Positions 2,686 through 64,000 of a DNA stretch of 64,000 nt are shown piece after piece; within the stretch, counting starts at the first letter, position 1; the number at the start of each line of letters is the position of its first letter. The notes beneath the pieces are model-generated. The model saw nothing but the letters and a program-made list of their open reading frames with translations. It ran no database searches and was not told where the DNA came from. Made by a program: the position numbers and the translations under genes. Source of the stretch: a virus; IMG/VR virus record IMGVR_UViG_3300048691_000181, positions 42,964 through 106,963 of that record; one strand, 5' to 3'.

Positions 2686-5600
2686 ATGCAAAAGACACTA
2701 TCTAATACTTTTACAGGCGGGATGAACTGGGCGCTTCTTCCACAACTGGTACCGCCTAATCAATACGAGCAAGCCCTTAATGCTGTAACACAAGATAGAG
2801 AAGGGCAATTAGGTGGCTTATCTACGGAACAATCTAACTTCAAGTGTGGTACACTTCCATTAGACTATGTGCTCATAGGGCATCAACTTCTTTCTGATAC
2901 AGATAAAGAACTCTATGTCTTATTCTATGCAGGAGCTAATGGCTATGGAGAAATAGGTATTCATAATCCTACTGATTGTGGTTACACTAAAATAGTCGGT
3001 TCTACGTGTTTAAACTTTAATGAACAATATCCTGTTTCTGCCTTGTTGAAAATACAAGACAATTCAAATCGGTTTGTTTATTTTACGGATGGCGTAAATC
3101 CATACCGTGTAATAAATATAGACGATAAGGCAAGATATGTTACAGACCCTAATCTTCCTACTGAGACACTTATTTGCGACGCCCTCTTGTTTGCGCCTAA
3201 TATGGAAACACCTTATCTAAAGGCTATAGAAGTCTTAGATGGCGGTTCTTTGAAGATGGGGCATTATCAGTGTTATGCACGTTATGTTGATAAAGAACTT
3301 ATCGTCACAAATGTCATAGCTCAGTCTAATGACGTAATGATAAATAGATACGCTGCTTCAGAAGGATATTTCACTATAGATGGAGGCTACAATATTTCTG
3401 ATGCTGGCATAGCTGCTGGTACAGAGCAATATCCTAAGACTAATAAGTCTATCAAGTACACTTTATACAACACGGACAATCGGTTTGATTATGTCGAATT
3501 CTTGATTGTCCTTTTTACTGGTGGAGACAATGCTATCTCTACGGTAGAAAAGAGTGCCCCTATTGCTATATCCAAAACTTCGTCAAATCCAACAGACCCT
3601 AATGGTACAGTAACATGGGTTTATACAGGATATAATGGACTATCGGGATATTCTATCAATGAGGTGATTATAGATAAGACCATCCTTAGCACAGTAAAAG
3701 CGCATATTCAAAAAGACAATAGACTATTTATTGCTAATACTGTTGAAGAAACGACTATGGACTATTCTCTAATCCAACAAGCAGCATTGTCTATACCAGT
3801 TAGATGGAGAGCAGAACGATTACCTAAGTTTACAGCAAATATAGAAGGAAACTCGAAAAATATGTTAGAGCACAAGACGTATATGCGTGATGAAGTATAT
3901 GCCTTAGGTGTTCAAGGAAGAAAGAAGAATGGTCAAAGGACACCTGTATTTCATATTCCTGGAAGAGCTCCTTTAACAGGGATAGGAGCGCCCCTGTCCT
4001 CTGGTGAAATATTTACTATTCGTACCAACCCTACCTCTGGTTGGGATAAGAAACTCTTAAACATAGTATCTTCTACTACGATTGATGCTACGGGAAATTC
4101 TGTTCAAACACATGAAGTAGAACACTTGACCAAGTATATAATAGGAAATCAGATAGAACGTTGGAGAGTTTATAACACGTCAAATATAGATATAGTTACG
4201 CCAACAGAATTTGGAGGCATCATGGCTTACTATGAATGCGATGAAGTTTACCCTACGATTAAGACACCAAACGGTTTAAATCTTTATGGTTCTTTAACAG
4301 GAAAATCTATTAGGCATCATAAGATGCCTGATACAAATACGATACTCCACTGTACAGATGACGAAGTTCGGCCTTTATCTTTAGACATCGATTTAAGTCT
4401 ATTTGTCTCATCTCTGCCGTCCGTTATTACAAATCAGGTAGAATCATGGCATATTGTACAAGCTGAGCGTACAGATGAAAACAAGACCGTTCTTGACAAA
4501 GGCTTTACCACGTACAACGAGTTTAACCTATATAGAGATACACCTCTTGCCTTCTATGATTCAGATAAAGTTATTTCTTTCTATTCTCCTAAGTCTGTAT
4601 TCCAGAGAGCAGGACTAAATGGGACACACTATAAGATAGAATGGTATAATCGAGAACAAGATGTAGAGGCAAATGTTTCAGACTATACATATTTACAACC
4701 TAATTTTGTTTCTATGGGAGGAGATAACAGAAAGATAGTACGAGAGTTTATTCAAAAGTTAGACACACTTGGACCACTTAAATACAATCCTTCTAATTTG
4801 GCAATAAAGGCATTTACTTATATTTCTCCTACGACATTGAGCTTAACCACAGATAATTTCACATTAGGAAGTCTGGGCAATATTACTGTAACGTTAAGGA
4901 ATAGAAGCTTCTCTAATGCGCTTTTGTTGTTTCAGATGGAAAATGGAAAAGTAATAAAGAATCCTACTGATTCTGCGGCATTCCCTAATGCCAAACCTTT
5001 CTTGACGTATGGTGCTATTAAGCAAGAGAAGTCTGTCTATGGAAACTTAGACCTATTGACCTATTTCGATACCTCCAGAATGCTCAATAGTCCAAACATT
5101 AATACGACCATTAATTCTAATCTTCATATTATCAAATCAGGAGATACGTTTATTACACCTTTGCACGTACATAATATAGCTTTCATTAACTACGGTTCAG
5201 TCCAGAACAATATCACAGAAGATTTCTATTACTATATAGTAGAGTCTGATTTGAATGCGGGTATGAGGCATCAATGGAATGTGAATCAAAAGACTCAGGG
5301 TAATCTTTATCATAAAGGATGGTACACATGGAATGGTGCACCTCAACGCTTTGGTGAAGACATTGAAGAATATTTAGTCAGAATGAACGGAGGTATATAT
5401 GCTGGTTTCTGGTCTAATTCAACGGCAGACAAAAGACTATTTGCTCCTGCCTATCTCTATAACAAAGACTACGGCTATCAGGCTCCAATTAAGCCTCAGT
5501 ATGCCTTGTCGGGACAATACGATTATATCAAATTCTCTGAAAAAAATAGGCACTATTATCGAATTAGATATTCAGAGAAGTCTTTCCAATCAGCAAGGAC

Positions 5601-6968: not shown

Positions 6969-9938
6969 ATGAAAAAGAAAATACAAAAACTTAGTCAAGG
7001 TGGAGATATTCTTGGAGGTATATCTAAATTTGCACCTCTGTTAAATATGGTAGCACCAGGATTAGGAACAGGCATAGGTGCTGTTGCGGGATTAGGTTCT
7101 TCCTACTTAAATAACCAAGAGATGAAACAGAAACAAGCAGAAATGGCTATGAACAATCCTGCTAACTATTCTAATCAGAATGCATTTGGTTATGCTCAAG
7201 GCGGTCCAGTTCTTCCTGCTCGAGACAATACATCTGTTCCTAATCCGATATTAAGACCTACGTGGATGGGAAATATGCAGAATCAACAACACTTCTATGC
7301 TCATAATTCTCCAACACAAGCGAATCTAAACATGATGAACATGTACGGACAAGGAGCTCAAGACCTAAATAACCAGAATGCAGCATATAAGAAATCTTTA
7401 ACAAGTCCTTCTACATTAGGTTCTGTTATGGGCAACACAGCCCTTGATGCTTTAGGCTTGTTTGGAGGCAATATGATTAAGCCTGCTGTCAAAGGCGTTC
7501 AAATGGGAAGTGCAAATAAAGTAGAAGACCTTATGCCATTCTCTAATCTATTGAGATGGGCTGATGACATTAAGGTTCTTCCTAAGTCTAATATAGGATT
7601 TAAAGACGGTGGAGACTTGTCTAAATTAGCCCAAGGTGCTGGCTTAGTTACAGGAGCTCCTAATCAGATAGATGGTAATAACATGAACTATAAAGGTTCT
7701 CCAATAGCCCTTAATCATGGTGAGACCTTAGATACGAATAAGGATAGAGTTATCTCTACCAATTACTTTAATCCTGTTACAGGAAAGAAAATAGTAGATG
7801 AAGATAAAGCGTTAAAGAGAAGTAGAGGGAAAGCAGAAAAGATACTTCAGAATGGTTCAGATGTAGCTGCCATGAATACTGTTAAATATACACAACAGAA
7901 AGAAGATGGACTCTATCGTATGCAAGAGATGATTGCTCAAATGGCAGGAGATAGGAATAGACCACAAGACCAACCTCCGCAAGGATATTACAAAGGTGGA
8001 GAGATTGGCAATGAACAAGGAGTTCCTCTAAACAAGTTCTATGAAGAGATGATGAATTCACAAGGAAGAGGCATTCAAGTAGAACAAGTTACAAATAACG
8101 ATACTTTGAATCAAGTAATAGTAGATGCATCTAATAAAGCAGCTAAAAATATTAAACAGAATAAAAAGTCTATTGCTCATTCTGAAGATACGGCTAAGAT
8201 TCAGAGAGAACTAAAAGCTCTTGGTTACGATTTAGGTAATTATGGGAATAAAGGCGTAGATGGTATATGGGGTAAGAAAACTGAATCTGCTTATAATGAT
8301 TCGGTTAAGAAAGGAATATACTATAAAGAAGGAGAGTTAGATTTAACAGATGAGCAGCAAGGATATCAAGCGAAGTTTAAGCATGGCAATAAAGATACAG
8401 ACGCTTTTCTTACTGGGCTTCAAAATTCTAATGCTCTAAAGTTTGATGAATTTAATAGTGGAAATGGATTACTCGATAGCATGATTTATGGACTTGGAGC
8501 GAATCAAAGAAAACATGATGAAAAAGTTCAAAAATGGTATGAAGCTCATCCTTACGAAGGTGTTCCTAAATCTTCTCTAATGAGTAAAGAAAACTCAATT
8601 CGCAAACAAAAGGTAAAAGCTGCTATTTCTAAAAAAGAGATGATTCGTCCTGATGATAGTTCAACTGTCATAGGTACTCCATTTGTGACCAATAGCACTA
8701 CTAAAAAAAAAGAACCTGTTTCAGCTCCCATTAAATCTACTCCAAATTGGGAAAATGCTCCATTGATTGAAGCGTATAGAAATGACCCTGACAAGAGTAG
8801 TTATCGTAATGCGCCTAAAAAAGAAGAAGGCAATTCTATGTTATGGCAAATGCTAACTATACTAAAGAATAACGAAGAAGGAAAATCATTAAGAAATGGT
8901 AGAGCTCAAGACGAAGTTACTAAGCAGGTATTATCTAAAAAGTATGTTACAGGTGGTCCAATAGACTGGGAAAAGAATATGCAAAACTTAGGGAATGTGA
9001 ATCAACGCTATATGCCTGATGGTTCAGAGATTGACCCGATATACGGAACTAATCCTTTGCCATTAAGAACACCTATGATTCCAGACTCTATTCAGTCTAT
9101 GTTTAATCCTGATGCTGGTAGGGGAGATAATGGCGCTTTCTTAAATAGGAGTAATCACTACATTACGGCGCCTTTGCCATTAGGAAGAGAAAAAGGAAGT
9201 CACGCATTAGATGTTCGAGTTAATCCTGATTTAGCTTCTTTGGATACAGACCCTTATGGGAATGCGCTTCAGACTGCTTTATCAGAGCAAGGAGCTGGCA
9301 TTGATACTAAGTTTGCGCCTAAGCAACATAATCCTAATTTCTGGTCTCAATCAACACAAGGAGAAAAGATAGGCATGGCAGGACAAGCAGCTTCTCTTAT
9401 TGCTAAAGGAATAGAATCCTTTCAACCGCTTCAACAACAAGCTACACGTCTTAATACAGCTCCTATTTCTTTAACTCAATTAGACCCTTCTTCTATCTTA
9501 AACAGAAATCAACAATCCTACCAATCAGCCTTAGCAGCCAATCAAGGCAATACCTCTAATCAGAATGTAGGTATACAACAAGCCTTATTTGCAAACAAGC
9601 TATCTGCGGATAATCAAGCACTTTCTCAATTTCAACAACAGAATGCTTCGCTCAAAGATAACTATGAACAAAGATTGGCTCAACGTATGGGAGAGAATAA
9701 TCAATCTGCTAACCAAACAGATGATATTATGGCAAGACGTAGAGGAACACGAGAAAACATGAGAATGGGACTTTATGGAGATGTTGCTACTATGGGTATG
9801 AATGTAGGTAACTTGATGAATACACGTATGTCTAACCAAGCAGGCTTACAAATGATGAAAGGAATAGCACCTGATGTATGGGCTAATCAAATGAAAAATA
9901 TGTCTCCAGCAATGAAGCAATACTTTGGACTTCAATAA
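6969..9938 (+). CDS. Internal virion cargo/ejection protein with a peptidoglycan-binding domain
   Basis: Gly-rich hydrophobic N-terminus; five xxxGG motifs; PG_binding_1-like IQRELKALGYDLG...VDGIWGKKTESA; Q/N-rich C-terminus. Confidence 0.65.
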   Translation: MKKKIQKLSQGGDILGGISKFAPLLNMVAPGLGTGIGAVAGLGSSYLNNQEMKQKQAEMAMNNPANYSNQNAFGYAQGGPVLPARDNTSVPNPILRPTWMGNMQNQQHFYAHNSPTQANLNMMNMYGQGAQDLNNQNAAYKKSLTSPSTLGSVMGNTALDALGLFGGNMIKPAVKGVQMGSANKVEDLMPFSNLLRWADDIKVLPKSNIGFKDGGDLSKLAQGAGLVTGAPNQIDGNNMNYKGSPIALNHGETLDTNKDRVISTNYFNPVTGKKIVDEDKALKRSRGKAEKILQNGSDVAAMNTVKYTQQKEDGLYRMQEMIAQMAGDRNRPQDQPPQGYYKGGEIGNEQGVPLNKFYEEMMNSQGRGIQVEQVTNNDTLNQVIVDASNKAAKNIKQNKKSIAHSEDTAKIQRELKALGYDLGNYGNKGVDGIWGKKTESAYNDSVKKGIYYKEGELDLTDEQQGYQAKFKHGNKDTDAFLTGLQNSNALKFDEFNSGNGLLDSMIYGLGANQRKHDEKVQKWYEAHPYEGVPKSSLMSKENSIRKQKVKAAISKKEMIRPDDSSTVIGTPFVTNSTTKKKEPVSAPIKSTPNWENAPLIEAYRNDPDKSSYRNAPKKEEGNSMLWQMLTILKNNEEGKSLRNGRAQDEVTKQVLSKKYVTGGPIDWEKNMQNLGNVNQRYMPDGSEIDPIYGTNPLPLRTPMIPDSIQSMFNPDAGRGDNGAFLNRSNHYITAPLPLGREKGSHALDVRVNPDLASLDTDPYGNALQTALSEQGAGIDTKFAPKQHNPNFWSQSTQGEKIGMAGQAASLIAKGIESFQPLQQQATRLNTAPISLTQLDPSSILNRNQQSYQSALAANQGNTSNQNVGIQQALFANKLSADNQALSQFQQQNASLKDNYEQRLAQRMGENNQSANQTDDIMARRRGTRENMRMGLYGDVATMGMNVGNLMNTRMSNQAGLQMMKGIAPDVWANQMKNMSPAMKQYFGLQ

Positions 9939-9958
9939 CCTAAACAAAAAGAAACGCA

Positions 9959-12094
9959 ATGCCAATTAATCAATATTTTAACTACCAACCACTACAACAG
10001 GCAGACTATTCATTCCATGCACCATTAGAGATGATGGGTAAGACTTTGTCCTATCTTCAGGATAAGTCTGACAAGAACTATGCTGCATTAGGAGAAGTGC
10101 CAAGTCTGCTCAATGTTCCTGTTTTAGAAAAAGATGCTCAGTTAAGAGCCAATATAGAGAATAAGTATAGAGATAGGATTAAACAATTAGTCGATAAAAC
10201 AGGAGGAGACTATTCTGGTGTCCAGAAAGATGTACTTGCTATCCAGAATGACCTTAGAAAAGACTTATCTTTCTCTGGAAACTTAGGCGCGTTGAAGTCT
10301 AACTATGACGAGTTTGGTGCTTACCAGAAAAGATTAACAGACAATAAAACCCTAACGAACTACCAGCGTTCAGGTGCAATAAATACATCTCTAAAGAATT
10401 ATCAAGGTGCAGGAGAGGTAGACGCTTTAACAGGCAAGTATAACCGATTCTCTGGTATAGACATAGATGGATTTGATGTCCAGAAACATTTGCACGATAT
10501 TAGAGACCTTAAACCTTCATCAGAAGAACAGATAAGAACTTATAAAGAAGGTAATGACATCATAGATAGAAAGTCTGCTGTTAAGGGTGTATCTTATAAG
10601 AATGCCTATGAAGTAGCCAAAGCTGACTTATTTTCCAATCAGGCTTATCAACAACATAGGAGACAAATGGCAGCTATTGGAATGGCTATTGACCCGAGAG
10701 ATGAACATGCTGCCTTAGATGCTTTTGCAGAACAAAGAAGCTTTAAAGAAGTATCAGATGACTTAAAGAGAACCAATACTGGTGATAGAGAATTTGCAGA
10801 AAGAAGAAGACACAATTTAATGATGGAAGGATATATGAAACCCGAACCTGTTGGACAATTAACATTAGAAGCTGGTAAAGGGAATGGAATACCATTAGAA
10901 AGAGAAATTAATACCACATCTAAATTAGAGCCAATTTATGATAAAGACTTCATTGAACTGTCTGAAGGACAGGCATATCTTGGATATAAGCCAGTATCTA
11001 AAGGTGATGAAACATTAGACTATAATCACTCTTATGTTAAAACAGACCAATATGGAATATCTGGTCAAGCTCTAACAATGGCAGGTAACCAATTAATGAG
11101 AGGTCAAAAGACAGCATTGAAGATGAAAGAAGTTAAAGATAAAGATGGTAATAAGACTCAAGTACCCGTTCCTTTCTCTGAACTCAATATTGATGAGAAG
11201 CAAGCTCAATTAGGTGCATGGAATAAAGACAAGTCAACTCAACAATCTCTTGTTCAGTTTACTAAGAATAACTATGGAACAATTGCACGTCAAAAGAACT
11301 TTACTTCCTCTTCAGTATTTACTATTGGAGATACTAAGAAACAAGATGAATTAGGTGGGTTGTATGAAGGTCAATCAGGATTGATTACTGTTTCAGATAC
11401 CCAAGGTGCTTCACAAGGAACACTTCAAGACCAGATATCGGCTTTCTCAAATACAGTAGGCGATGGCTCTAAAGTTAAAGTAACAGCAATTGGACCTTCT
11501 CCTTCAGCCAATCCTTCTGTAACAGGAAAGATGTCAGTTCGTCTTACTGTTCAAGGAAAGGCAGGACAACCTATTTCTAAGATACTATTCCTCGACAATC
11601 AAGACCCTGCTCTTCAACAGACTTATAAATCTGCTGTTGCAGCCTTTGCTCCTAATCAAGAGCAATTTGTATTTCAGCATAACGGAAAACCTGTACATTA
11701 TGAAACATCTTATACAGAGTCTTTAACGTCTCCAGATGGAAGTATATCTTCTATGTTTAGGGTTGCTCGACCTACTTCGCCATCAGAAATAGCAGAGAAT
11801 AAGCGCTTAGGAATTGATGGGACTGCCTTCATAGACAATGAAGCTGCTCTTAGCTTAGGCTCTCAAGTAGGTGTTAACCATACTATTATTGGCGGTAATA
11901 ACAGAAAGGGATTAATTGAAGTGTTAGAGAATCTACCAAATGGCAAGTCTGTTAAAAAGACTTATCGGATTAATTCTCTAACACAATTGTATCCTTCTTT
12001 ACAGGAAGCAACACCTCAATTAGCGCCATCTAAAGCAACAAAGTCTACTCGTTATAGTCAATCCCAATCTTCAAGTTATTCGGAGAATGATTAA
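9959..12094 (+). CDS. Internal virion cargo/ejection protein
   Basis: Helical N-terminus (Y...PLEMM...LQDK.D.N) and position directly before the giant RNAP gene, as in crAss-like phages. Confidence 0.55.
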   Translation: MPINQYFNYQPLQQADYSFHAPLEMMGKTLSYLQDKSDKNYAALGEVPSLLNVPVLEKDAQLRANIENKYRDRIKQLVDKTGGDYSGVQKDVLAIQNDLRKDLSFSGNLGALKSNYDEFGAYQKRLTDNKTLTNYQRSGAINTSLKNYQGAGEVDALTGKYNRFSGIDIDGFDVQKHLHDIRDLKPSSEEQIRTYKEGNDIIDRKSAVKGVSYKNAYEVAKADLFSNQAYQQHRRQMAAIGMAIDPRDEHAALDAFAEQRSFKEVSDDLKRTNTGDREFAERRRHNLMMEGYMKPEPVGQLTLEAGKGNGIPLEREINTTSKLEPIYDKDFIELSEGQAYLGYKPVSKGDETLDYNHSYVKTDQYGISGQALTMAGNQLMRGQKTALKMKEVKDKDGNKTQVPVPFSELNIDEKQAQLGAWNKDKSTQQSLVQFTKNNYGTIARQKNFTSSSVFTIGDTKKQDELGGLYEGQSGLITVSDTQGASQGTLQDQISAFSNTVGDGSKVKVTAIGPSPSANPSVTGKMSVRLTVQGKAGQPISKILFLDNQDPALQQTYKSAVAAFAPNQEQFVFQHNGKPVHYETSYTESLTSPDGSISSMFRVARPTSPSEIAENKRLGIDGTAFIDNEAALSLGSQVGVNHTIIGGNNRKGLIEVLENLPNGKSVKKTYRINSLTQLYPSLQEATPQLAPSKATKSTRYSQSQSSSYSEND

Positions 12095-12172: not shown

Positions 12173-15100
12173 ATGGACGAACAAGGACAAGACCCGTTTG
12201 CAGGAGGACTGCAACCACTAAAGAATACATACCAAAGACAATTTCAGACATTAGATAAGCCGACAGAAATGGAGGCTTATAATGAATACGATAGAGGCTT
12301 TATTCCTAATTCAGGAATGAGTCAAGAACACAATAGAGCAAATAACCAGTCAAGTGGAGACTTACTTGCTAAGGCTGTTAAACGCTTAGCAATCTCTACT
12401 CCATTAAAGTTTGCTGAAAGTATCTCAGACTTAGGAGGTTTCTTGACAGGAACTTCAGCTATGGACAATCCATTATCTGTTGGATTAAGACAAGCAGAAG
12501 ATGCATGGAAAGAAATGAATCCTGTTTATCGTTCTCAAAAGTATGACGAAGGAACAGTATGGGACAAGATGACATCTGGTTCATTCTTAGCTAATGACCT
12601 TATTGATGGTGTGGCTTATATGGCTTCAGCATGGGGTGGTACAAAGCTGATTGGTGCTGGTGTAGGAATGGCACTGAAGGCTACTATGCCTGAATTGGCA
12701 TTAGCAGAAGCAGCAATGGCTAATGGTCAACAATTGAGTGGCGGTTCTAAGTTTGTCCAGACACTTCTTAATCGTGGCTTAGACGCCAATAATATTACAC
12801 GTGGTACTGTAACAGCTTTAAATACGATTTCAGAAGCAACAGCAGAATCCGTAGACTCTTATACTCAAGTCAAACAAAACTTGCTCAGAAAGAAGCAATT
12901 AGGGCTTATGGGCCATTCTGGTTATGAGGACTATGCAAATATAGGAGATGACCAAATAGAATCTGAAGCAAGAAGTGCTTATAAGGAAACCTTTGTTGGT
13001 AATGCGGCTATCTTAATCCTGCCTAACTGGTTAGAATCTGGTTGGTGGTTAGGAAAAGCAGGTAAAGCAGGTGCTCGTGCAACCTTAACAACAGCTTTCA
13101 GAGCAGGAGAAACGCAATTGGCTCAAGAGGCAGAAAAAATGGGTTTCAAACATGGAGCTATTGCTTTTGCTAAAGGCTTTGCTACGGAAGGCTTATGGGA
13201 AGAGAATCTTCAAGGCGCACTTCAAATGTACGAGAAGTCTATCTCTGACCCGACACTCTCTAATCGCGATAGAGGGCTATTTCCTGGCATTGCAGGCACT
13301 TTAAAGAATTCAGCAACAAACTTAGCAGGGTTTAGCAAAAGTCTCTTAGGAGGCAATATTGATGCCAATTCAGAAGAAGGTCAAGGTGCTATCTCTATCT
13401 GGTTAGGCGGTGCTTTAGGCTCTCCTATGGCATTGATGGGTCATTACCGTGAACAAGTGGACAATAAGAAACAGAGAACAGAACTTCAGGCTGAGTTAGA
13501 TAGAGCACATCAGAATAGTAAAATATTAGGTCATGGATTCAATAAAGAGATAAACTTTGCTGTTGACTCGATTGAGAAAGATGATACTGGAAAGATAAAG
13601 AAAGATGCTGAAGGTAATCCTATTATCAAGTTTGATATAGAGAAGAAGACTCGAGATTTGATTTCAGGATTTTTTAAAGAGATGTCTGCTAACCATGCTG
13701 TTTTAGCGGATATGGCAGACAATGAAATCTATGGTGCTGTTAATACACATTTCTCTGCCTTCAACGCGGCTATGGAAATAGAACAGTCAAGATGGGATAA
13801 AGGGATTAAGGATGTCTTTGCTGAAAGATTGGTTAAAAACTTTGAAGAGATGTCTAAGGGAACAGAAGCTGTACCAGAAAGTAAAGACGAACAAGGCAAT
13901 GTTATACCAGCTCAAGAAGCTGTTGAAGGAACGAATGTAGGTAGAGGACTTTTTAAATTAGAGCTCTTAAACTCTTATCGTGACTTGTACCGTAATGAAT
14001 ATCAAGCAGCCTATAACAAAGCATTTAGAAGCTTTGACGGCAATGACGAGAACAAGAAACGTTTCTTATTAGACATGGTTCAGAATAGAACGATTGAGAT
14101 GTTTAGGTTACAGATGTTAAAGAGCTTGAGAGATGGTAATGGTTCTCTAACAACAGATGGTTTAGCAGAACCCTATATCAAGTCTAAGCAAGGAAGAGAA
14201 GACATAGAGAAGTTGATTGCCGAGAAAGAAGCTCAAATAGAAAAGTTTAATCTTAGGACAAACTCGAAAGGCATAGAAGCAATGTATGGAGAATATCAGA
14301 AGTCTCAATCGGTAGATGATGTTCAGGAAGCATTGGGTAATGCAGTAAAAGAAGTAGCAGATTTAACCAAAGAACTTTCTGCAACAACAGAAACAGAGGT
14401 AGAGCAAACAACTAAAGATGCAGACGGCAAAGATGTAGTGACTAAAGTAAAGCAACAAGTAGGCATTTCAGAAGAAAAAAGAAAAGAGCTGAATCGGAAG
14501 ATTCAAGAAAAGAAGAATGAAGTATTTCTTAAACGTCAAGAATATGAAGAACAGGCTGGTATTCACGCTAAGTCTATCTCAACCAACTTTTATCATGATA
14601 AAGACCTTGCAAAAGATGCCTTAGCTGGTAAAGATGTTAGAGGAATGGGACGTTACCAATATGAAAGGTTAGCTCATTCAAGAACTAAGATAGGTGGTAG
14701 ATTTAGTAGATACCAGAATAGAAGAATGGGTCAAGTTCAAGATAGTCTTATCGCTCAAGTAGCGGCTAATATTCAAGCGAATAGAGAAAAGATGGCAGGG
14801 GACTTAACCTTAGTTGACCGTGTTCAAGACTTGATGGACCAATATGAAGATGCACTACTTAATCCTCAAGCAGGTTCAGAAGAAATACGTCAACAATTAC
14901 AAGAAAATGAAGAGAAGTCTCATCTATTATATCAAGAAGAAAAAGATTTAGATTTAAGATATACAGAAGAATTAAAGTATGCAACAACTTCTTTGTTGCG
15001 AAATCGCATTGATAAGACTTTCCAAAAACAAAGAGCCTTATTAAGTGAAAGAAGAGAGCTGTTAATTAACGAGTATAAAAACTTAGAGCAAGAATATAAA

Positions 15101-35684: not shown

Positions 35685-35713
35685 GCCTTAGTAAGAACTA
35701 ATAAGCAGATGCA

Positions 35714-35753
35714 AAAAAAATCTACTTACCAATTAAGGTAAGTAGATTTTTTT
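35714..35753. terminator. Bidirectional intrinsic terminator at the convergence of the two gene blocks
   Basis: aaaaaaatctacttacc-aattaa-ggtaagtagattttttt: 17-bp perfect inverted repeat giving a U-tract on both strands. Confidence 0.9.
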
Positions 35754-42487: not shown

Positions 42488-42823
42488 TTAATGTGCCGTA
42501 GTAGCACCTCTTATAATGAAATTCATAGCATCTACTACATCTTGCCTTATTTGAAGATGTAGTAGCTTTATATTTAAAGGATGAAGATTTGAATGGTTAC
42601 CTCTTAAATAACACCATTCAAATGCATTCCTCGTATTCCCAGTTCCCCTATCAAGGCTTATCCATTTCTTCTGAAAAAAGGATTCTGCTTTTCCGAATTC
42701 GTTTAGAATACAAATAATAACGCCTTCATGAAGGGAATCTAAAAACTCTATTTGTTGTTCAAGTGTATCAAACTTGAACTTTTCGAGATGCTTGAAGTTA
42801 TAATTAAACTTATGCCTTGTCAT
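42488..42823 (-). CDS. Hypothetical protein
   Basis: 111-aa ORF overlapping the primase stop. Confidence 0.5.
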   Translation of the reverse strand: MTRHKFNYNFKHLEKFKFDTLEQQIEFLDSLHEGVIICILNEFGKAESFFQKKWISLDRGTGNTRNAFEWCYLRGNHSNLHPLNIKLLHLQIRQDVVDAMNFIIRGATTAH

Positions 42824-46174: not shown

Positions 46175-47185
46175 TTAGATGAGCGTGTTTGTAGGCTGAT
46201 AAGCGTCTCTTATAGTAGAGTTCTTAAAATCAGCAATCATGTGAAGTACGGGACATTCGCCAAACCTATTCTTCAACAGGTGGAAGTATATCATAGGAAG
46301 ACCTGTTCTTAGGTCATATACAGGGTAGTTTAGGTCTCCGTACTCTTTGATTCCCCGTACTCTACTTGGATTCATACTAAACAGAACTATGTCCGAATTA
46401 GAAAAGATGGCAGACGAGCCAAATATGTCTGCTTCGGTCGGGTAGTGTAAGGCTTTATTTGACACCCTTGCTGAAGAGAAAATGTCTCTATTTGTTTGGC
46501 TTAAACAAAGAAAGATAATACTCAACCCCATATCTTCAAAATCCTTCTTCATGTCTACTAATTGCTGGTAGAGATTGTCTACAATACGCTTAGCGTCTTC
46601 ATCATTCTTTCCCTTCGTTAGAGTGATATAATCTATCGTGACAATGAGCTTTTTCTTTCTTCCTTCATCAGTAAGATTTCCTTCATTATCCCAAAGTTCA
46701 TCTAACTCACGGTCAATAACAAATTGACATATTTCTGTCTTTATTTGGGCTACAGATTGTGCTTTGTCTATGTTAAATACAGGTTTATCTCCAAGCGTCT
46801 TTATAGCTTCCTCGACAAGTGCTGCTTCCTCCTCAGTCATAACGTACCCTCTCGCAGATTGAAGACTCTTTAATCCAATGCCTGTCTTCTTTGATAGATG
46901 TCGTAGTATTTGCATACGCACAATCATATCGAACTCGAAAGATAAGCATTCGACCAAAGGGTCTTGTTCCATAATGAAGTACTTTATTTGCTCCATAATC
47001 GTAGATTTCCCTGAAGAAGGCGTACCTACAATAGTCATTAATGTCCACCACGGGATGCCGTCCAGTAACGCATCGTTAAGACCTCTGTACGGTGTTTCTG
47101 CTGAAGGAAGTAGCCCGTCTTTACGAGCAGTCATGTATTCTTTTGTTTTCCGTATATCTACGGATATGTGTTTATATGCACCCAC
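46175..47185 (-). CDS. dnaB: DnaB-like replicative helicase (C-terminal domain only)
   Basis: GTPSSGKS, FEFDM, TIDY, LSQTNR, S..I...SD, LKNRFG; GTG start. Confidence 0.88.
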   Translation of the reverse strand: MGAYKHISVDIRKTKEYMTARKDGLLPSAETPYRGLNDALLDGIPWWTLMTIVGTPSSGKSTIMEQIKYFIMEQDPLVECLSFEFDMIVRMQILRHLSKKTGIGLKSLQSARGYVMTEEEAALVEEAIKTLGDKPVFNIDKAQSVAQIKTEICQFVIDRELDELWDNEGNLTDEGRKKKLIVTIDYITLTKGKNDEDAKRIVDNLYQQLVDMKKDFEDMGLSIIFLCLSQTNRDIFSSARVSNKALHYPTEADIFGSSAIFSNSDIVLFSMNPSRVRGIKEYGDLNYPVYDLRTGLPMIYFHLLKNRFGECPVLHMIADFKNSTIRDAYQPTNTLI

Positions 47186-47223
47186 TTGCGTCTATGTATT
47201 ATTTATGGGATTATTTTACTTGG

Positions 47224-47448
47224 CTAAGAAATATAGCTTTCCATTTTTTCTATGGATATATAGATGTCTGCTACTTCTTTCTCAGCCAGTTCTTTGAGCT
47301 CTTTGAGAAAGAACTCAAAGAGCTCAAAGAACTCGATTAAGACATTTTTTTAAGATGTAGTCTTGAAAGATATATCTATAAAATGAGTATATCCATCATT
47401 CACCCAATGCCTATAATTCTTCTTCGTAAGTGTCGCCTCGTTCGACAC
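47224..47448 (-). pseudogene. Small acidic protein frame broken by one TAA
   Basis: VSNEATLTKKNYRHWVNDGYTHFIDISFKTTS*KNVLIEFFELFEFFLKELKELAEKEVADIYISIEKMESYIS; TAA at 47350-47352. Confidence 0.4.
47289..47332. repeat. 19-bp perfect inverted repeat with a 6-nt loop
   Basis: gttctttgagctctttgag-aaagaa-ctcaaagagctcaaagaac. Confidence 0.95.
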
Positions 47449-47608
47449 TTACTTCAATTATTTTCCAGTCAATGACGCCATCGTCATCTGCATCGTTGAG
47501 TGTATCTTTTTCATACTCAACGACTTCAGCAATTACCTTTTCTAATTCTTGTTTATCTTTACAAGAATATACCGCAGTCTTAGAGACTGTTACTTGTTTC
47601 CTAAACAT
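47411..47608 (-). CDS. Small acidic hypothetical protein
   Basis: 65 aa, in an overlapping chain of small ORFs. Confidence 0.55.
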   Translation of the reverse strand: MFRKQVTVSKTAVYSCKDKQELEKVIAEVVEYEKDTLNDADDDGVIDWKIIEVSVERGDTYEEEL

Positions 47609-47784
47609 TTTTTGATTCTTGTTTTTCTCTTAAAAATAATAGCACGACCAAATTCTTTTGATTGTTGCTTCTCGTCTAACTCTTTAGCGAGTTGACGCAT
47701 GGCTTCAATACATTCATCTACAATGAGCATAGATTCACCCTTTACTTCAAAGATGCTGGAGATTAATATTTTTTTTGATTGCAT
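47590..47784 (-). CDS. Small hypothetical protein
   Basis: 64 aa, TAATG-coupled. Confidence 0.55.
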   Translation of the reverse strand: MQSKKILISSIFEVKGESMLIVDECIEAMRQLAKELDEKQQSKEFGRAIIFKRKTRIKKCLGNK

Positions 47785-58770: not shown

Positions 58771-59790
58771 CTAACTCGAATTGTATTTTTTAATCAGACA
58801 AGTAGGAATTATTCCGAGCATCCGCTCTTCCTCGTTAAAGAGCGGTGCTGATTGTTCGATAAACTCTACAATGGCGTAGTGTTTATCGTTGAATATCTTA
58901 TTCGCAGTCAAGCCTTCTTTATAGAAGCGCATCTTAGAGATTACTTCTATCTCTTGACCTTGCGATGTGAGAAAGGAACGGGCCTTAGTTCCTTCTATTT
59001 CAGCATCCGTCATCTTTGTAAACATAGACTCTATTCTAAAGTCTATGCCTTCTAAGTTGACGAGAAGCTTTATGTGCGGATAGTCTGGCACTTTCTCAAT
59101 AAAGTTGGGCTGTGCTACTGTTTTGGAGTTCTTTTCTTGAGCTTCAAACTCCTTAAACATCTCTATTCTTTCCCTTAGTGCGTTTTTAATACGCGTGTAA
59201 AAGAGAGAAAGGTTGGGTACAGGACAAGAGACTTCCCTGTACTCAGTAGCAGCTTCTCGAGCCCCTTGAAATCGAATAGCATCAGAAGTTGCATAGCTTG
59301 AGCCTTTCTTATCAAGCTTGTGTCGATTGGGGTCTTTATTATCTTCTTTTATCCTTTCAAGGAACATTCTTAGTTTCTCGTTATCATAGACTTTACAGTC
59401 TTCAATCAACATGTCCTTAAAAGGCCAGGCAGAGTAAGTATTATATAAATCCCTTGCGAATTCTTCTATAACAGCGATTTTTCCTTGCACCGTATTGCGA
59501 TATGCAATCTTGGTTGCCAGTGCTGTTTTTTGAAGAATAAAGTTCTTTTCTGGTTGAACAAATTGGCTGTATATGTATTCATAATCCTGTTTGTCTAACT
59601 GCTTGTTAGGGATTAGATTATGTGCCAATGTGTTTAAAGGGATAATGATAGATACGCTCTTCTTGTTGAAGAAACATATGTCGCCTATCATTATCTTATT
59701 TTTTAGGTCTTGTAGTTTCTTAGCTGAGGCAGCGCTAACAGCATTGCCCCCATTTTGTGGTCTACGCCCTGCTCCTAAGTCACCATTCAT
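58771..59790 (-). CDS. Paralog array member 1
   Basis: IMIGDICFFNK ... YAIVEF...IIPTCLI. Confidence 0.6.
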   Translation of the reverse strand: MNGDLGAGRRPQNGGNAVSAASAKKLQDLKNKIMIGDICFFNKKSVSIIIPLNTLAHNLIPNKQLDKQDYEYIYSQFVQPEKNFILQKTALATKIAYRNTVQGKIAVIEEFARDLYNTYSAWPFKDMLIEDCKVYDNEKLRMFLERIKEDNKDPNRHKLDKKGSSYATSDAIRFQGAREAATEYREVSCPVPNLSLFYTRIKNALRERIEMFKEFEAQEKNSKTVAQPNFIEKVPDYPHIKLLVNLEGIDFRIESMFTKMTDAEIEGTKARSFLTSQGQEIEVISKMRFYKEGLTANKIFNDKHYAIVEFIEQSAPLFNEEERMLGIIPTCLIKKYNSS

Positions 59791-60563
59791 CTTTTCTTTT
59801 TAGAGTTTGAAAATGCTATATTAAGGTCTATATTCCCTTTAGATGATTCAATTTTCCCTTTATCTGTATATTGAATCATACATATAGGATTCTTAATGTC
59901 CCTATATGCGAACTCACTATTTTCAAGAATATCTTCTATATTCTTATAATGGGCTAACCAAAGAGGATAAGCATGAAGAGATAGAATTGGAAGTATCCAG
60001 CTCTCGTAATAGTCCTTATTCGTATAAATAATAGGTGTCCTTTTGGTAAGACGTGCTATCTCTTTAACAAACTGAACTAACTCCTTTTCCTCTTGTTTTC
60101 TTCGGTTAGGAAGAAAGAGATTGTCCTTTATAGGAGGATTCTTCTCAATGTCTATAACAGGAGCGAGAGTTATTACATCTCTATACGTCTCCCACTGTTT
60201 AAGGAAACTCTTTACTTGGTTGGGAACAGACTGATTCCACTTATAGAAGTGATAAATGCCTATATCTGAACCAGAGTAAATCTTGTACCTTCTTATGTTT
60301 TCCATGTTGAAGCTCAATGACTTATCTGGAACAGTTCCGCAAGTTGCTCTAAGGTAGATAAACTTAATTGCCTCTCGTTTCTCGTACATCAGCCCCCAGT
60401 CTATTGAGTTGTATTGGCTAATGTCTATGCCTACCTTTCCATTAGAAACTAAGGCGTTATTCGATGCTGTTAAAGCTTCTTGGACATCACTTATCTTGGT
60501 ATATTTTGGAGAGCCAGCGATAAGCAAGATTCCCAATAAAGAAAATACAAGATACTTTATCAT
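59787..60563 (-). CDS. GH25 muramidase (lysin) with an N-terminal signal/TM segment
   Basis: GIDISQYN, YLRAT.G, GIYHF, VIDIE (DxE), IIYT, LWLAHY, QYTDKG, DLN. Confidence 0.9.
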   Translation of the reverse strand: MIKYLVFSLLGILLIAGSPKYTKISDVQEALTASNNALVSNGKVGIDISQYNSIDWGLMYEKREAIKFIYLRATCGTVPDKSLSFNMENIRRYKIYSGSDIGIYHFYKWNQSVPNQVKSFLKQWETYRDVITLAPVIDIEKNPPIKDNLFLPNRRKQEEKELVQFVKEIARLTKRTPIIYTNKDYYESWILPILSLHAYPLWLAHYKNIEDILENSEFAYRDIKNPICMIQYTDKGKIESSKGNIDLNIAFSNSKKKR

Positions 60564-60577
60564 GTCCTATTGCTTTG

Positions 60578-60817
60578 TTAGTTGAACATGAAATAGCCAA
60601 TACCACAAGCAATAATTGTGGTAATAGAAGAGGCAAAAAAGAACTCGTTCTGTTTGTTGTTTGGCTTTTGATAAACCAAGAGCCACTTCTTTAGATTGAA
60701 AGAAGGCCAAACGGGTAATTTATCAACCCATGACCACATGTTTGCCACAATAAGAGCTGAACCAAGACCGACAATGAACTGAATCATTGTCCAAAATAAA
60801 AACACCTTTATAGACAT
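60578..60817 (-). CDS. Two-TM small membrane protein (possible holin)
   Basis: Two hydrophobic helices; directly upstream of the GH25 gene. Confidence 0.45.
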   Translation of the reverse strand: MSIKVFLFWTMIQFIVGLGSALIVANMWSWVDKLPVWPSFNLKKWLLVYQKPNNKQNEFFFASSITTIIACGIGYFMFN

Positions 60818-60849
60818 TTTTTTTAATTTTAAAAGTTAGATGCAAAGAA

Positions 60850-61036
60850 AAAACAGCTCTAACATAAGAACGGATGCAGATGCACCCTCAACCAAAATAA
60901 TACTGCGATAGATGCAGATGCGAAGGAGTAGGGTCATATAATGACAAACACTCTTCGTAGCTTAGCGAGCTTCCATATATAGGAATACTTCAATTCTAAG
61001 CGATTATTTTGATTTCTCTTATGTTAGAGCTGTTTT
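60850..61036 (-). ncRNA. Candidate structured non-coding RNA/element closed by 20-bp inverted repeats
   Basis: aaaacagctctaacataaga (60850-60869) pairs perfectly with 61017-61036; nested inner stems; U-tract at the 3' end on -. Confidence 0.6.
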
Positions 61037-61050
61037 GTTTAAGATGTAGT

Positions 61051-62853
61051 CTATGCTACATTCTTAGCTTTACCCCAGAGTGGGTAAGGCGTGGAGAACT
61101 CGACCGCGTGGTTGAGGTTCTTCCACTTCGGTTCTTTCGGCTGGAAGACGATGAATTCCATCGTCTTATGAAAGGGCTTGTACTCGCCAATCATCTTATG
61201 ACCAGCCTTGAGCGCAAGGAAAATATCCTTGGTTTCGCTCTTCGGAATCCAAATTGGTTCACAGCACCGAATTGTATCGGAATCTGTGATTACCATATTT
61301 GGTTGACCTCCTTTAGAGGTCTGGATAAACTGAATGGGTGCCTCAATTACATACGGCACCGTAATTTGGCGCTCGTAGTAGTCGAGGCTAAATCTGTCCT
61401 TAACCAGAACAGAAATAACACAACTTGGGTAGAAGAATCCCTCTTCTACGTTCAATTTGTGAAATCCAGCCGTAGCAACCGCAGGCAGTCCATTAGGCTG
61501 CTTCCCGTAATTCATAGAAACACGAGAAACGGCACTCGGAATACCAACGTTTGCCATCTTGCGGTCGAGGCAAGGGTATAGCGAATGAAGCGCTTTCGAT
61601 TCAGCAAATTCCTTATCGACCTTTCCGACGTTGAAATTAAGCTGAACTTGATTGCGGTCTGAGGCTTGTGCCATTTGACCGAGCTGTTTGCCGACCTGCT
61701 TGCGAGCGAACTTGTCTGCCGACTTTTGGCGAGAAGCCTGAAGTGGCTTCTTCGTCGTTTCAAGTCGTGCTTCAACAGCTTGTTTTATGAGCTTGCTGGC
61801 ATCAAACTTACGAGTTTGTTTCGGAGCCATAGCTGCAAACAAACCGTCATTCCCTACTTGAGCAACTGTTGCAGCCAAGTCTGCTGGCTGCGTAATGATT
61901 TCAGCTTTAGGGAAAACAGGTGTCTGAACAGGAACTTGAACCTGAGTTGCGAGCGTTTCGACGAAACGCTCCATTTTCACTTCTTCAGCCTCCATTTGCG
62001 CATCCACTTGCGCATGCGCCTCGATTTTCGCTTCGAGCACTTCTATCAAGTGCTCTTGAATTTGAGCCTCAACAAGCTGAATCACCTCTAATGTGGGTGT
62101 TTTGATAATCGCTTCAGCTTCCACTTCAATCTCTTCCCCTCTAATAGGGGTATCTTCAATCGAAGGAACAATTTCAACAGCCAAGTCCTGATTATCGAGA
62201 ACCACTTCTGGTTCTTCGATTGGAGAAATGGGTTTTTCAGTTATTGGTTCAACAACTGGCGCTACAACGGCATTAGCGCCGACTTGTACTGTTTCGTCCG
62301 AGAACAATGCCTCGTATACGGAAACGCCTTGGTCAAGCAAGTCGGCTGTTGCATTCAACAGAATGTCAGACGCAGTTTGCTCTTCTACCTGTGTTTCAGG
62401 TCCTTGAACAGCAGCAGAGCTCTGCTCCATGAATTCCAATTCCGCCATTTCGACCTCGTCGATATGGTTGCCTAATAACATATGAAGGCATTCTCCGTAG
62501 TTTTTAAGACACTTCTCGACGTACTTGCGATAGCCGTCTACAACGACGGCAGGTCTTGTTTTTGTTTTAGCCTCGACAAAGTCGAGAATTTCTTCATTGT
62601 CCCACTTAAATGGGTATGCAGCTGGGTTCGCTGCATCAAACGGCATAGCCAAGAAGTCGGAAACTCCGACTTGAAGAATTCCTTTTTGGAAGGCAGATGT
62701 TAAGCCGTCTGCTAATCCCTCTTGGATGTTAGCGAAACGCAGCGTCTCGATATTGTCCTTTGAGCCTGAGACAGTAAGCGCAGAAATAATGGCTGCGTAA
62801 GTTGAAGCTCCTACTACTAAGACAGAATTGCCTACGGCACTTGGATTTGACAT
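61051..62853 (-). CDS. Hypothetical 600-aa protein with a long acidic E/V/A/P-rich linker
   Basis: Long ORF, A-rich leader; globular-looking ends joined by a low-complexity region. Confidence 0.7.
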   Translation of the reverse strand: MSNPSAVGNSVLVVGASTYAAIISALTVSGSKDNIETLRFANIQEGLADGLTSAFQKGILQVGVSDFLAMPFDAANPAAYPFKWDNEEILDFVEAKTKTRPAVVVDGYRKYVEKCLKNYGECLHMLLGNHIDEVEMAELEFMEQSSAAVQGPETQVEEQTASDILLNATADLLDQGVSVYEALFSDETVQVGANAVVAPVVEPITEKPISPIEEPEVVLDNQDLAVEIVPSIEDTPIRGEEIEVEAEAIIKTPTLEVIQLVEAQIQEHLIEVLEAKIEAHAQVDAQMEAEEVKMERFVETLATQVQVPVQTPVFPKAEIITQPADLAATVAQVGNDGLFAAMAPKQTRKFDASKLIKQAVEARLETTKKPLQASRQKSADKFARKQVGKQLGQMAQASDRNQVQLNFNVGKVDKEFAESKALHSLYPCLDRKMANVGIPSAVSRVSMNYGKQPNGLPAVATAGFHKLNVEEGFFYPSCVISVLVKDRFSLDYYERQITVPYVIEAPIQFIQTSKGGQPNMVITDSDTIRCCEPIWIPKSETKDIFLALKAGHKMIGEYKPFHKTMEFIVFQPKEPKWKNLNHAVEFSTPYPLWGKAKNVA

Positions 62854-63413: not shown

Positions 63414-63998
63414 TTAATCTTCAAATTCCAGCGCCAACTGAAGAGAGTCTTCAAGTTGGTCAATGTCTTCAAACTCGAGGTCGTCATTGACCTCTTTGAA
63501 ATTAACCGTGAGCAGCATTTGCTGATAACCTCCACACACAACGAGTGCGTAGAAGTTAAAAAGTTCAATAATATACTGCTCGGGATAGAGCAGTTTTACC
63601 GTCCCCATTTGTTGAAGAAATCGAAGCACGTCTCGTGCTGATTCCATCCTGCGAAATGCAGGATGAATAACGATACGACCTACATTATTTTCGGTCATTA
63701 CGAAATCGAGTTCGCAATTTTGAAGATAGTCCAACCACCGCGAGTTGAGCACCTCTGAATCGATTTGAAATCTCATTGTTCCATTCTCGATAACACCAAT
63801 ACGTTGGTAACAAAACTGCGTTACCATCATTTTAAATCCGCGAGCCAATTGGAACAGAGAATCCAAGTCGGTTTCCTGAAGTGCTTCGTAGTCCAGTCCG
63901 ATGAAAAGCGGTGGTTCGGTTTTCGGCGACTTGAACTGGAATTCGATAGCATCAGAAGTTTGCTGGCTTCCCCAGAGGGCTCTCAACCAGAGAGTCAA
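63414..63998 (-). CDS. Hypothetical protein with an acidic C-terminus (probably 5'-truncated by the window edge)
   Basis: Frame is open to the window end. Confidence 0.6.
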   Translation of the reverse strand: MTLWLRALWGSQQTSDAIEFQFKSPKTEPPLFIGLDYEALQETDLDSLFQLARGFKMMVTQFCYQRIGVIENGTMRFQIDSEVLNSRWLDYLQNCELDFVMTENNVGRIVIHPAFRRMESARDVLRFLQQMGTVKLLYPEQYIIELFNFYALVVCGGYQQMLLTVNFKEVNDDLEFEDIDQLEDSLQLALEFED

Positions 63999-64000
63999 CC

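Follow-up and report, generated by a model that had tools for sequence, protein, structure and literature searches.

A non-coding element of 187 nt, closed by a long perfect helix and placed directly before a holin-like gene and a muramidase gene, raises the question of whether it works as an RNA, as a DNA signal, or not at all. It lies in the window, the whole 64,000-nt stretch of DNA that was analysed, which forms the final 64 kb of an IMG/VR virus record of 106,963 bp; coordinates refer to the window unless they are given as genome coordinates.

The element as observed is real, and each detail listed for it in the initial annotation was found again in the sequence: the perfect outer inverted repeat (60850-60869 and 61017-61036, 20 nt per arm, 100% complementary), the inner stem of 12 nt with one mismatch, the two branch hairpins (P3 and P4, to which P5 and P6 are added here), the 11-nt direct repeat, and the U-tract behind the helix on the minus strand. 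The last of these reads U6CU3 and consists of the final four U of helix P1 together with the UUCUUU of its tail (Table 1). The 147 nt between the arms form five further helices, nested so that the 21-bp P1 encloses the 12-bp P2, with which it is coaxial, while P3 to P5 lie within P2 and P6 lies between P2 and P1. The single mismatch of P2 is an A-C opposition on the plus strand and a G-U pair on the minus strand. An A-rich run precedes the 5' arm of P1 on the minus strand, two similar hairpins display AUCU loops, and P6 was flagged as terminator-like by a terminator consensus scan.

Table 1. Coordinates of the element, its neighbouring genes and the related sites in the window
Feature	Position	Strand	Description
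15-nt box AGACTACATCTTAAA	61038..61052	-	1 nt before P1; overlaps the TAG of the 600-aa ORF
P1 5' arm (sense orientation)	61016..61036	-	20 perfect Watson-Crick pairs and one G-U; mean pair probability 0.96
P1 3' arm	60850..60870	-	ends in GAGCUG-UUUU
P1 tail	60838..60849	-	UUCUUU, then GCAUCU
P2 5' arm	61003..61014	-	12 bp; closes the inner three-hairpin domain
P2 3' arm	60890..60901	-	
P3 composite hairpin	60960..61001	-	base GCUUAG/CUAAGC, tip UUCC/GGAA, 7-nt loop; pair probability 0.73-1.00
P4 hairpin	60921..60957	-	stem CGAAG-AGUG with bulged C; tip GUCAU/AUGAC
P5 hairpin	60903..60917	-	CUGC-loop-GCAG; 5' half within direct-repeat copy 1
P6 hairpin	60872..60887	-	GGGUGC-AUCU-GCAUCC; holds direct-repeat copy 2; pair probability 1.00
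Direct repeat GATGCAGATGC	60873..60883 and 60911-60921	+	11 nt
Upstream gene, 600-aa orphan ORF	61051..62853	-	G+C 0.47; last gene of the higher-GC accessory/RNA module
Downstream gene, 79-aa two-TM holin-like ORF	60578-60817	-	G+C 0.36; start 60817
Downstream gene, GH25 muramidase	59787-60563	-	follows the holin-like ORF
Sister site	47288..47363	-	box and 20-bp perfect hairpin (47288-47333); upstream of a DnaB-like helicase gene
Block-terminal bidirectional terminator	35707..35753 (hairpin 35714-35753)	-	A7-stem-loop-stem-T8, then GCAUCU

The fold is robust and non-random. The minimum free energy, computed over 206 nt, is lower for the minus strand (-71.5 kcal/mol, z -7.4) than for the plus strand (-65.2 kcal/mol, z -6.6); 200 shuffled controls yielded no fold as stable, and the structure is unchanged within a 461-nt context. 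Mean pair probabilities range from 0.73 to 1.00 across all helices. Removal of the outer helix leaves the inner 147 nt with z scores of -4.0 (minus) and -3.0 (plus), and both strands of the 101-nt core score about -2.5. Perfect inverted repeats of 20 bp occur twice in the 107-kb genome, the chance expectation for such a repeat within 400 nt being about 4e-5 per genome by the authors' estimate, and only that of the element has a long spacer. The two strands are not equivalent. The minus-strand fold contains 72 pairs, 6 of them G-U, at -70.9 kcal/mol, and the plus-strand fold 66 pairs, 2 of them G-U, at -64.1 kcal/mol, a gap of 6.8 kcal/mol. Since the minus strand has more pairs, more G-U pairs and the lower energy, an RNA in the sense of the flanking genes is favoured, though modestly.

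The phage is crAss-like, and its genome includes an ORF of 6327 aa, taken to encode a virion protein with a polymerase domain. Its capsid protein is 28.7% identical to the counterpart in Flavobacterium phage FpV4 (INPHARED) and 47% identical to one on an 8.9-kb fragment. The first ~150 nt of the record (genome 1-150) recur at its end (window 63850-64000) with one 1-nt indel (GAGGCTC versus GAGGGCTC); this makes the genome circular or terminally redundant, whereas its IMG/VR label is linear. Minus-strand genes form a 42-kb block that runs from genome position 14124 leftwards over the record junction to 78735, and the element is situated about 17.5 kb into this block. That it fills the gap before the holin-like gene had been pointed out earlier and holds: of the 233 nt that separate the 600-aa ORF from the two-TM ORF it covers 187, and it begins 14 nt past the TAG stop codon at 61051, and ends 32 nt before the start codon of the 79-aa ORF, leaving the start region uncovered. 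Gene G+C content is 0.40-0.47 for all genes upstream in transcription order and 0.33-0.41 downstream, and the step from 0.47 to 0.36 coincides exactly with the element, which therefore marks the seam between two modules.

Few relatives of this region were found. The 600-aa ORF, whose central region is acidic and rich in E, V and Q, retrieved nothing but itself from 5.8 billion proteins, and it had no match in Pfam, PHROG or INPHARED and no usable match in the ESM Atlas. Queries with the 600-aa ORF, the GH25 muramidase and the amidoligase retrieved nothing from IMG/VR; GH25 relatives with 65-69% identity reside on JGI contigs of 1.3-3.5 kb, and the nearest bacterial ones belong to the order Chitinophagales. 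Judged from these searches, the phage appears nearly alone in the sequence collections covered. The higher-GC module also encodes a second cell-wall hydrolase with a Glucosaminidase domain (E 3.6e-29; genome 6284-7381, minus strand), so that, together with GH25, at least two muralytic enzymes are encoded on the early strand.

A first indication of what the closing helix might do comes from the terminator at which two gene blocks converge, a hairpin with a perfect stem and a 6-nt loop. In P1, an A-run is followed by a stem whose base is CAGCUC/GAGCUG (four G-C pairs in six), then by U6CU3 and GCAUCU, and this layout of A-tract, stem, U-tract and GCAUCU is common to both. P1 thus resembles the phage's own terminator and, as read from the sequence, looks like a phage-type terminator in which a folded 147-nt domain takes the place of the loop. 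GCATCT has ten copies in non-coding DNA genome-wide, four of them in or beside the element and one after the block-terminal terminator. Measured against intrinsic terminators in general, P1 has the G+C-rich stem base and the U-run and departs from the usual loop of about 3-8 nt; the terminator consensus scan did not call it. Its 21 bp, about two turns, also reach the length of at least 20 bp of uninterrupted double-stranded RNA that characterises an RNase III stalk.

On these grounds, the explanation tentatively preferred here is that the element punctuates the sense-strand transcript in cis, as a terminator or an RNase III stalk through which expression of the lysis genes would be gated; this is a real possibility, some way short of an established one. 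An attenuator processed by RNase III was among the readings offered by the initial annotation, and it survives on indirect support: the stable, non-random fold with better pairing on the sense strand, the terminator layout of P1, the placement between a stop codon and the next start codon at the G+C step, and an RNA-rich genome in which the same strand carries a Pistol ribozyme and tRNA-like genes with aberrant anticodon loops. Against it stand a 147-nt "loop" far outside the range of normal intrinsic terminators, whose arms would have to meet in time, the modest size of the G-U asymmetry, and the wobble-free pairing of P1 (20/20), which would suit a DNA-level or young element equally well. 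RNase III, moreover, is not encoded by the phage, the search for its domain in the phage genome having returned no match.

A further feature lies immediately upstream of P1, where a small hairpin with a bulge has the 15-nt box as its 3' arm. Elsewhere in the 107-kb genome this 15-mer is found once, at 47349-47363 on the same strand, and the match can be extended to 18 of 19 positions. At this sister site, the box accompanies the genome's only other 20-bp perfect repeat, a hairpin with a 6-nt loop, at a distance of 15 nt (47334-47348) versus 1 nt at the element. The probability that the box would come to stand next to both 20-bp repeats by chance is about 1e-4 by the authors' estimate. The shared box ties both long hairpins into one system, which would be read on DNA or on RNA. 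The sister site carries no U-tract on either strand, and termination therefore cannot be the function common to both sites, a further point against the punctuation of transcripts. The window also contains, at 42532-42565, a perfect 12-bp hairpin whose arms CTACTACATCTT contain the 10-nt core of the box; it lies within the 3' portion of a called ORF of 111 aa. The sister site itself belongs to a 650-nt gene-free stretch (47135-47783) upstream of the helicase gene, in which another long-range stem (47225-47287) and more small hairpins lie beyond its own hairpin; a fold of 246 nt there has a z score of -8.6. In other phages, the box gave 58 single matches in IMG/VR, approximately the number expected by chance, none of them followed by a stem of more than 9 bp.

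These observations bring in the alternative that box and repeat act as DNA, the repeat being prone to extrude as a cruciform and the whole serving as a promoter of the injected giant RNA polymerase, an operator for a phage regulator, or a site of replication or priming. Such a role is unlikely, though it deserves serious attention. The exact recurrence of the 15-mer on one strand beside both perfect repeats would be accounted for, as would the operator-like presence of the box core in both arms of the 42532-42565 hairpin, the 20/20 Watson-Crick pairing of P1 and the position of the sister site next to a helicase gene; the virion polymerase of crAss-like phages is active in vitro only on single-stranded or denatured DNA. 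Cruciform extrusion, however, is slow with a spacer of 147 nt, the spacing between box and hairpin is unequal at the two sites, the G-U pairs of the inner helices help only a sense-strand RNA, and just two or three sites are available for the 42-kb block. For the early transcripts of phage phi14:2, likewise, no upstream motif in common was found. In the promoter scans, the box next to the element matched neither the sigma-70 nor the TAnnTTTG type.

Some of these features bear on another alternative, that template switching or fold-back repair left a neutral palindrome without function in a non-coding gap. An orphan locus beside an orphan gene fits this account, and the perfect arms suggest a recent origin. 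Helices nested at five levels with high pair probability would be hard to obtain from a single replication accident, however, and the shared box, the shared terminator-style tail and the exact placement at the seam are likewise at odds with neutrality, which makes it a distinctly unlikely explanation.

Searches for relatives of the element and for genes that could move it were negative throughout. Rfam, scanned with cmscan and a 241-nt query at E<=10, returned no family (two irrelevant matches, E 0.27-4.8). The initial annotation had seen no tRNA T-loop or hammerhead core; the Rfam tRNA model was blank, and ARAGORN found neither tRNA nor tmRNA in the window. A search of the genome with a word size of 7 detected no second copy, and BLAST against 50,697 phage records yielded nothing. 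The terminal 20-mer and the correctly spaced pair of arms are absent from IMG/VR, from JGI/ENA metagenome contigs and from GTDB (one genome for each of 185,579 species), the one exception being a chance match within a coding region. The matches dismissed as chance, both within coding sequence, were an 18-mer in IMG/VR and a 20-mer in a Firmicutes MAG. BLAST against 401 genomes of the Chitinophagales, selected as the order of the nearest bacterial GH25 relatives, found no full-length copy, the matches of 23-37 nt being at chance level. Across the phage genome, there was no match to the tyrosine and serine recombinase families (PF00589 Phage_integrase and PF00239 Resolvase), to the reverse transcriptase RVT_1 (E<=1), or to Y1_Tnp and the TnpB zinc-ribbon domain of IS200/TnpB-type elements. 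A target-site duplication is also lacking: AAAGA on one flank and GTTTA on the other form no direct repeat and belong to an A-run and a T-run that are themselves inverted.

Because these searches for mobility genes, further copies and target-site duplications were blank, the MITE, inverton and retron readings, all raised in the initial annotation, each fail a defining test. In its broader form, the mobile-element reading holds that a non-autonomous, MITE-like element, or a foreign 147-bp sequence inserted into the loop of a former terminator, now persists as a passenger. The perfect 20-bp terminal inverted repeats, the 147-bp body and the total length below 200 bp are indeed MITE-like, the mosaic junction with its G+C step is suggestive, and the sister hairpin with its 6-nt loop offers the very picture of an "empty" hairpin. 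In contrast to MITEs, the element is present as a single copy in all searches, duplicates no target site and is accompanied by no match to a Y1 transposase, TnpB, integrase or resolvase, so that this origin is quite improbable. An invertible promoter segment that toggles the lysis genes is more doubtful by far and scarcely credible. Its length of 187 bp and its 20-bp inverted repeats would suit the invertons of Bacteroidota, which are reportedly comparable in size and repeats (Jiang and colleagues are said to have described them in 2019). The phage encodes neither a tyrosine nor a serine recombinase, no TTTG...TAnnTTTG promoter occurs within or beside the element, and the phage appears lytic because no integrase matched. 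The suggestion of a retron-like RNA finds no reverse transcriptase in the genome to work with. A 6S-like RNA is disfavoured by the multi-branch fold without a central bubble and by the absence of an Rfam 6S match at E<=10.

Several further candidates were set aside. The P2-closed core is cloverleaf-like and P5 presents CUA in a 7-nt loop, as a suppressor or otherwise odd tRNA might, but the order of the arms and the stems do not fit and both tRNA searches were blank. A small hydrophobic ORF of 33 codons (60836-60937, minus strand) has a length expected by chance where sequence is U-rich, and its frame crosses the helices. The 11-mers, 38 nt apart, recall the tandem repeats of type III antitoxins, although the units are otherwise without likeness. 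Sigma-70 promoter predictions occur at chance level, and the genome's one full match to TTTG-N17-23-TAnnTTTG, the Bacteroidota-type promoter, lies elsewhere and on the other strand. A connection with the early intergenic RNAs that are abundant in phi14:2 was rejected, as the 1.7-kb region concerned has no similar repeat. In the long non-coding early region of that phage (phi14:2 4000-4560), putative tmRNA-like ends seem, by eye, to be present (GGGGUCGAC... and a GGUUCGAAUCC T-arm).

The module upstream of the element is rich in RNA features (genome coordinates in this paragraph). A Pistol ribozyme at 13193-13254 on the minus strand, the strand of the early genes, scores 54 bits with a gathering score of 34.5; it lies within a called ORF of 120 aa that is possibly spurious. 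Four matches to the tRNA model, at 35-66 bits, follow at 9873-9946, 10301-10374, 11154-11227 and 12525-12595, all on the minus strand. Three of the four have anticodon loops of 8 nt (CUUGAAAG, UUAGGUUU and UUAUAAAA), the loop of the fourth (UUUAGU) measures 6 or 8 nt depending on how the stem is called, and ARAGORN assigns four-base anticodons to three. The same module encodes a 505-aa protein (3042-4559, minus strand) with a Ro60/TROVE fold and a DxSGSM MIDAS motif. Direct sequence searches of Pfam and PDB with this protein were blank; Pfam TROVE appeared in seven of the eight remote profile matches scanned, and hhalign aligned it to a Ro60-type vWA domain at 99.7% probability. Its AF2 model (pTM 0.74) retrieved Ro60 over the full length in all of the best 12 PDB matches, with Ro60 of phage phiLo first, and on this evidence the protein is Ro60-like. 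Its only close homologue, with 39% identity, is encoded on a 103,776-bp ENA contig that is probably the nearest relative of the phage. Since the module also encodes a Ro60-fold protein, the tRNA-model RNAs would be worth testing for tRNA mimicry of the YrlA kind. A unit of 144 nt (4577-4720) with a perfect closing stem of 13 bp abuts the Ro60-like gene, its end lying 17 nt from the start codon.

The presence of this protein raises the alternative that the element is a stable RNA acting in trans, its paired ends and branched interior binding a protein. One candidate is the Ro60-fold protein, of which the element would be a Y-RNA-like partner, and another is a factor that recognises the repeated GCAUCU hairpin loops. 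Y RNAs combine a long 5'-3' stem with a large internal loop, and their genes lie close to that of Ro60, in phages as well (PMC4201824, PMC12135203). With Y and Yrl RNAs, the element shares a long stem that joins its two ends, an interior that is large and branched, a 3' U-run and a Ro60-fold protein in the genome (PMC4201824, PMC12135203), and it adds two hairpins with AUCU loops. Other hallmarks differ. In Y RNAs, the helix is bulged and a GNCGAA(N)G or GGUCCGA motif lies close to the 5' end (PMC4201824), whereas P1 has no bulge and the only comparable sequence in the element, UACGAAG on the minus strand or UGCGAAG on the plus strand, sits in the middle of the molecule with its single CGAA paired inside P4. 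The length of 187 nt exceeds the 80-130 nt of Y RNAs, and the Ro60-like gene is not adjacent, being about 6 kb and seven genes away. The element matched neither Y_RNA nor any other Rfam family at E<=10 and has no similarity to the 144-nt unit adjoining the Ro60-like gene. Because motif, bulge, length and distance differ, it was not assigned to the Y RNA family. A trans-acting RNA is accordingly viewed as an unlikely but serious candidate. The more specific proposal, in which a divergent second Y-RNA-like partner of the Ro60-fold protein would be cut out at the 21-bp stalk and, with the tRNA-like RNAs, would redirect the RNA decay or repair of the host, is viewed as decidedly improbable.

Returning to punctuation of the sense-strand transcript, its course, from transcription through termination or cleavage to the gating of lysis, is one that we infer from the fold, its stability and strand bias, the layout, the G+C step and the box. 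The element would be transcribed on the minus strand within a long early or replicative transcript, and the inner 147 nt would fold first, the compact P2-closed domain drawing the arms of P1 together. The 21-bp P1 followed by U6CU3 might then halt RNA polymerase as an intrinsic terminator or attenuator, and P1, as roughly two turns of perfect double-stranded RNA, might also serve as a substrate for RNase III of the host, an enzyme that is assumed here. The transcript of the upstream RNA-rich accessory module would thereby be ended or cut, expression of the holin-like protein and GH25 would come to depend on read-through or re-initiation, and a stable RNA of roughly 150-190 nt would arise as a by-product.

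In other phages, the start and stop sites of virion RNA polymerases are marked by phage-specific motifs (10.1101/2022.12.01.518664), and abundant early intergenic RNAs are produced by a crAss-like phage (10.1101/2020.03.07.982082); none of these precedents matches the sequence of the element. Should the punctuation of transcripts be confirmed, a crAss-like lineage would punctuate a single, very long early transcript with RNA devices of several unrelated kinds (tRNA look-alikes, long perfect stalks and a Pistol ribozyme), and a gate directly before genes for cell-wall degradation would provide a handle on the timing of lysis. The transcription signals of the crAss-like group are almost unknown, and the 15-nt box represents a concrete candidate for a phage-specific signal of transcription or processing.

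Among known systems, the cassettes called PeSL, which Arbiol and colleagues reportedly described in 2010 in T4-type phages, are said to combine an early promoter with a stem-loop at module borders and to occur in dozens of copies. The element resembles them in joining a repeated short box to a stem-loop at the border of a variable module; it differs in having two or three copies in the phage rather than dozens, a box that is no recognisable promoter, and a large inner domain. RNase III stalks, such as the R sites of T7 early mRNA and the stems that bracket 16S and 23S rRNA, share with the element at least 20 bp of uninterrupted double-stranded RNA flanking a folded RNA in an intergenic region of a polycistronic transcript, although the T7 R sites, unlike the element, are 50-60 nt hairpins that contain an internal bubble. 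The phage's own terminator at 35714-35753 is alike in A-tract, perfect stem, U-run and GCAUCU and has a 6-nt loop where the element has its structured insert of 147 nt.

In phage lambda, the PR'-tR' late leader gives rise to a "6S" transcript of 194 nt that is read through by Q before the S-R-Rz lysis genes. Both systems place a non-coding leader of ~190 nt, with a hairpin and a U-tract, immediately before holin or holin-like and endolysin genes, and both have a short conserved sequence just before it. Unlike its lambda counterpart, the element has terminator arms 147 nt apart that enclose a folded domain, shows no sigma-70 or Bacteroidota-type promoter in the scans, and precedes lysis genes that lie within a replicative block rather than at the head of a late operon. 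By analogy, then, the lambda PR'-tR' leader may be considered the nearest working parallel to the element, and RNase III stalks and the phage's own terminators its nearest structural parallels.
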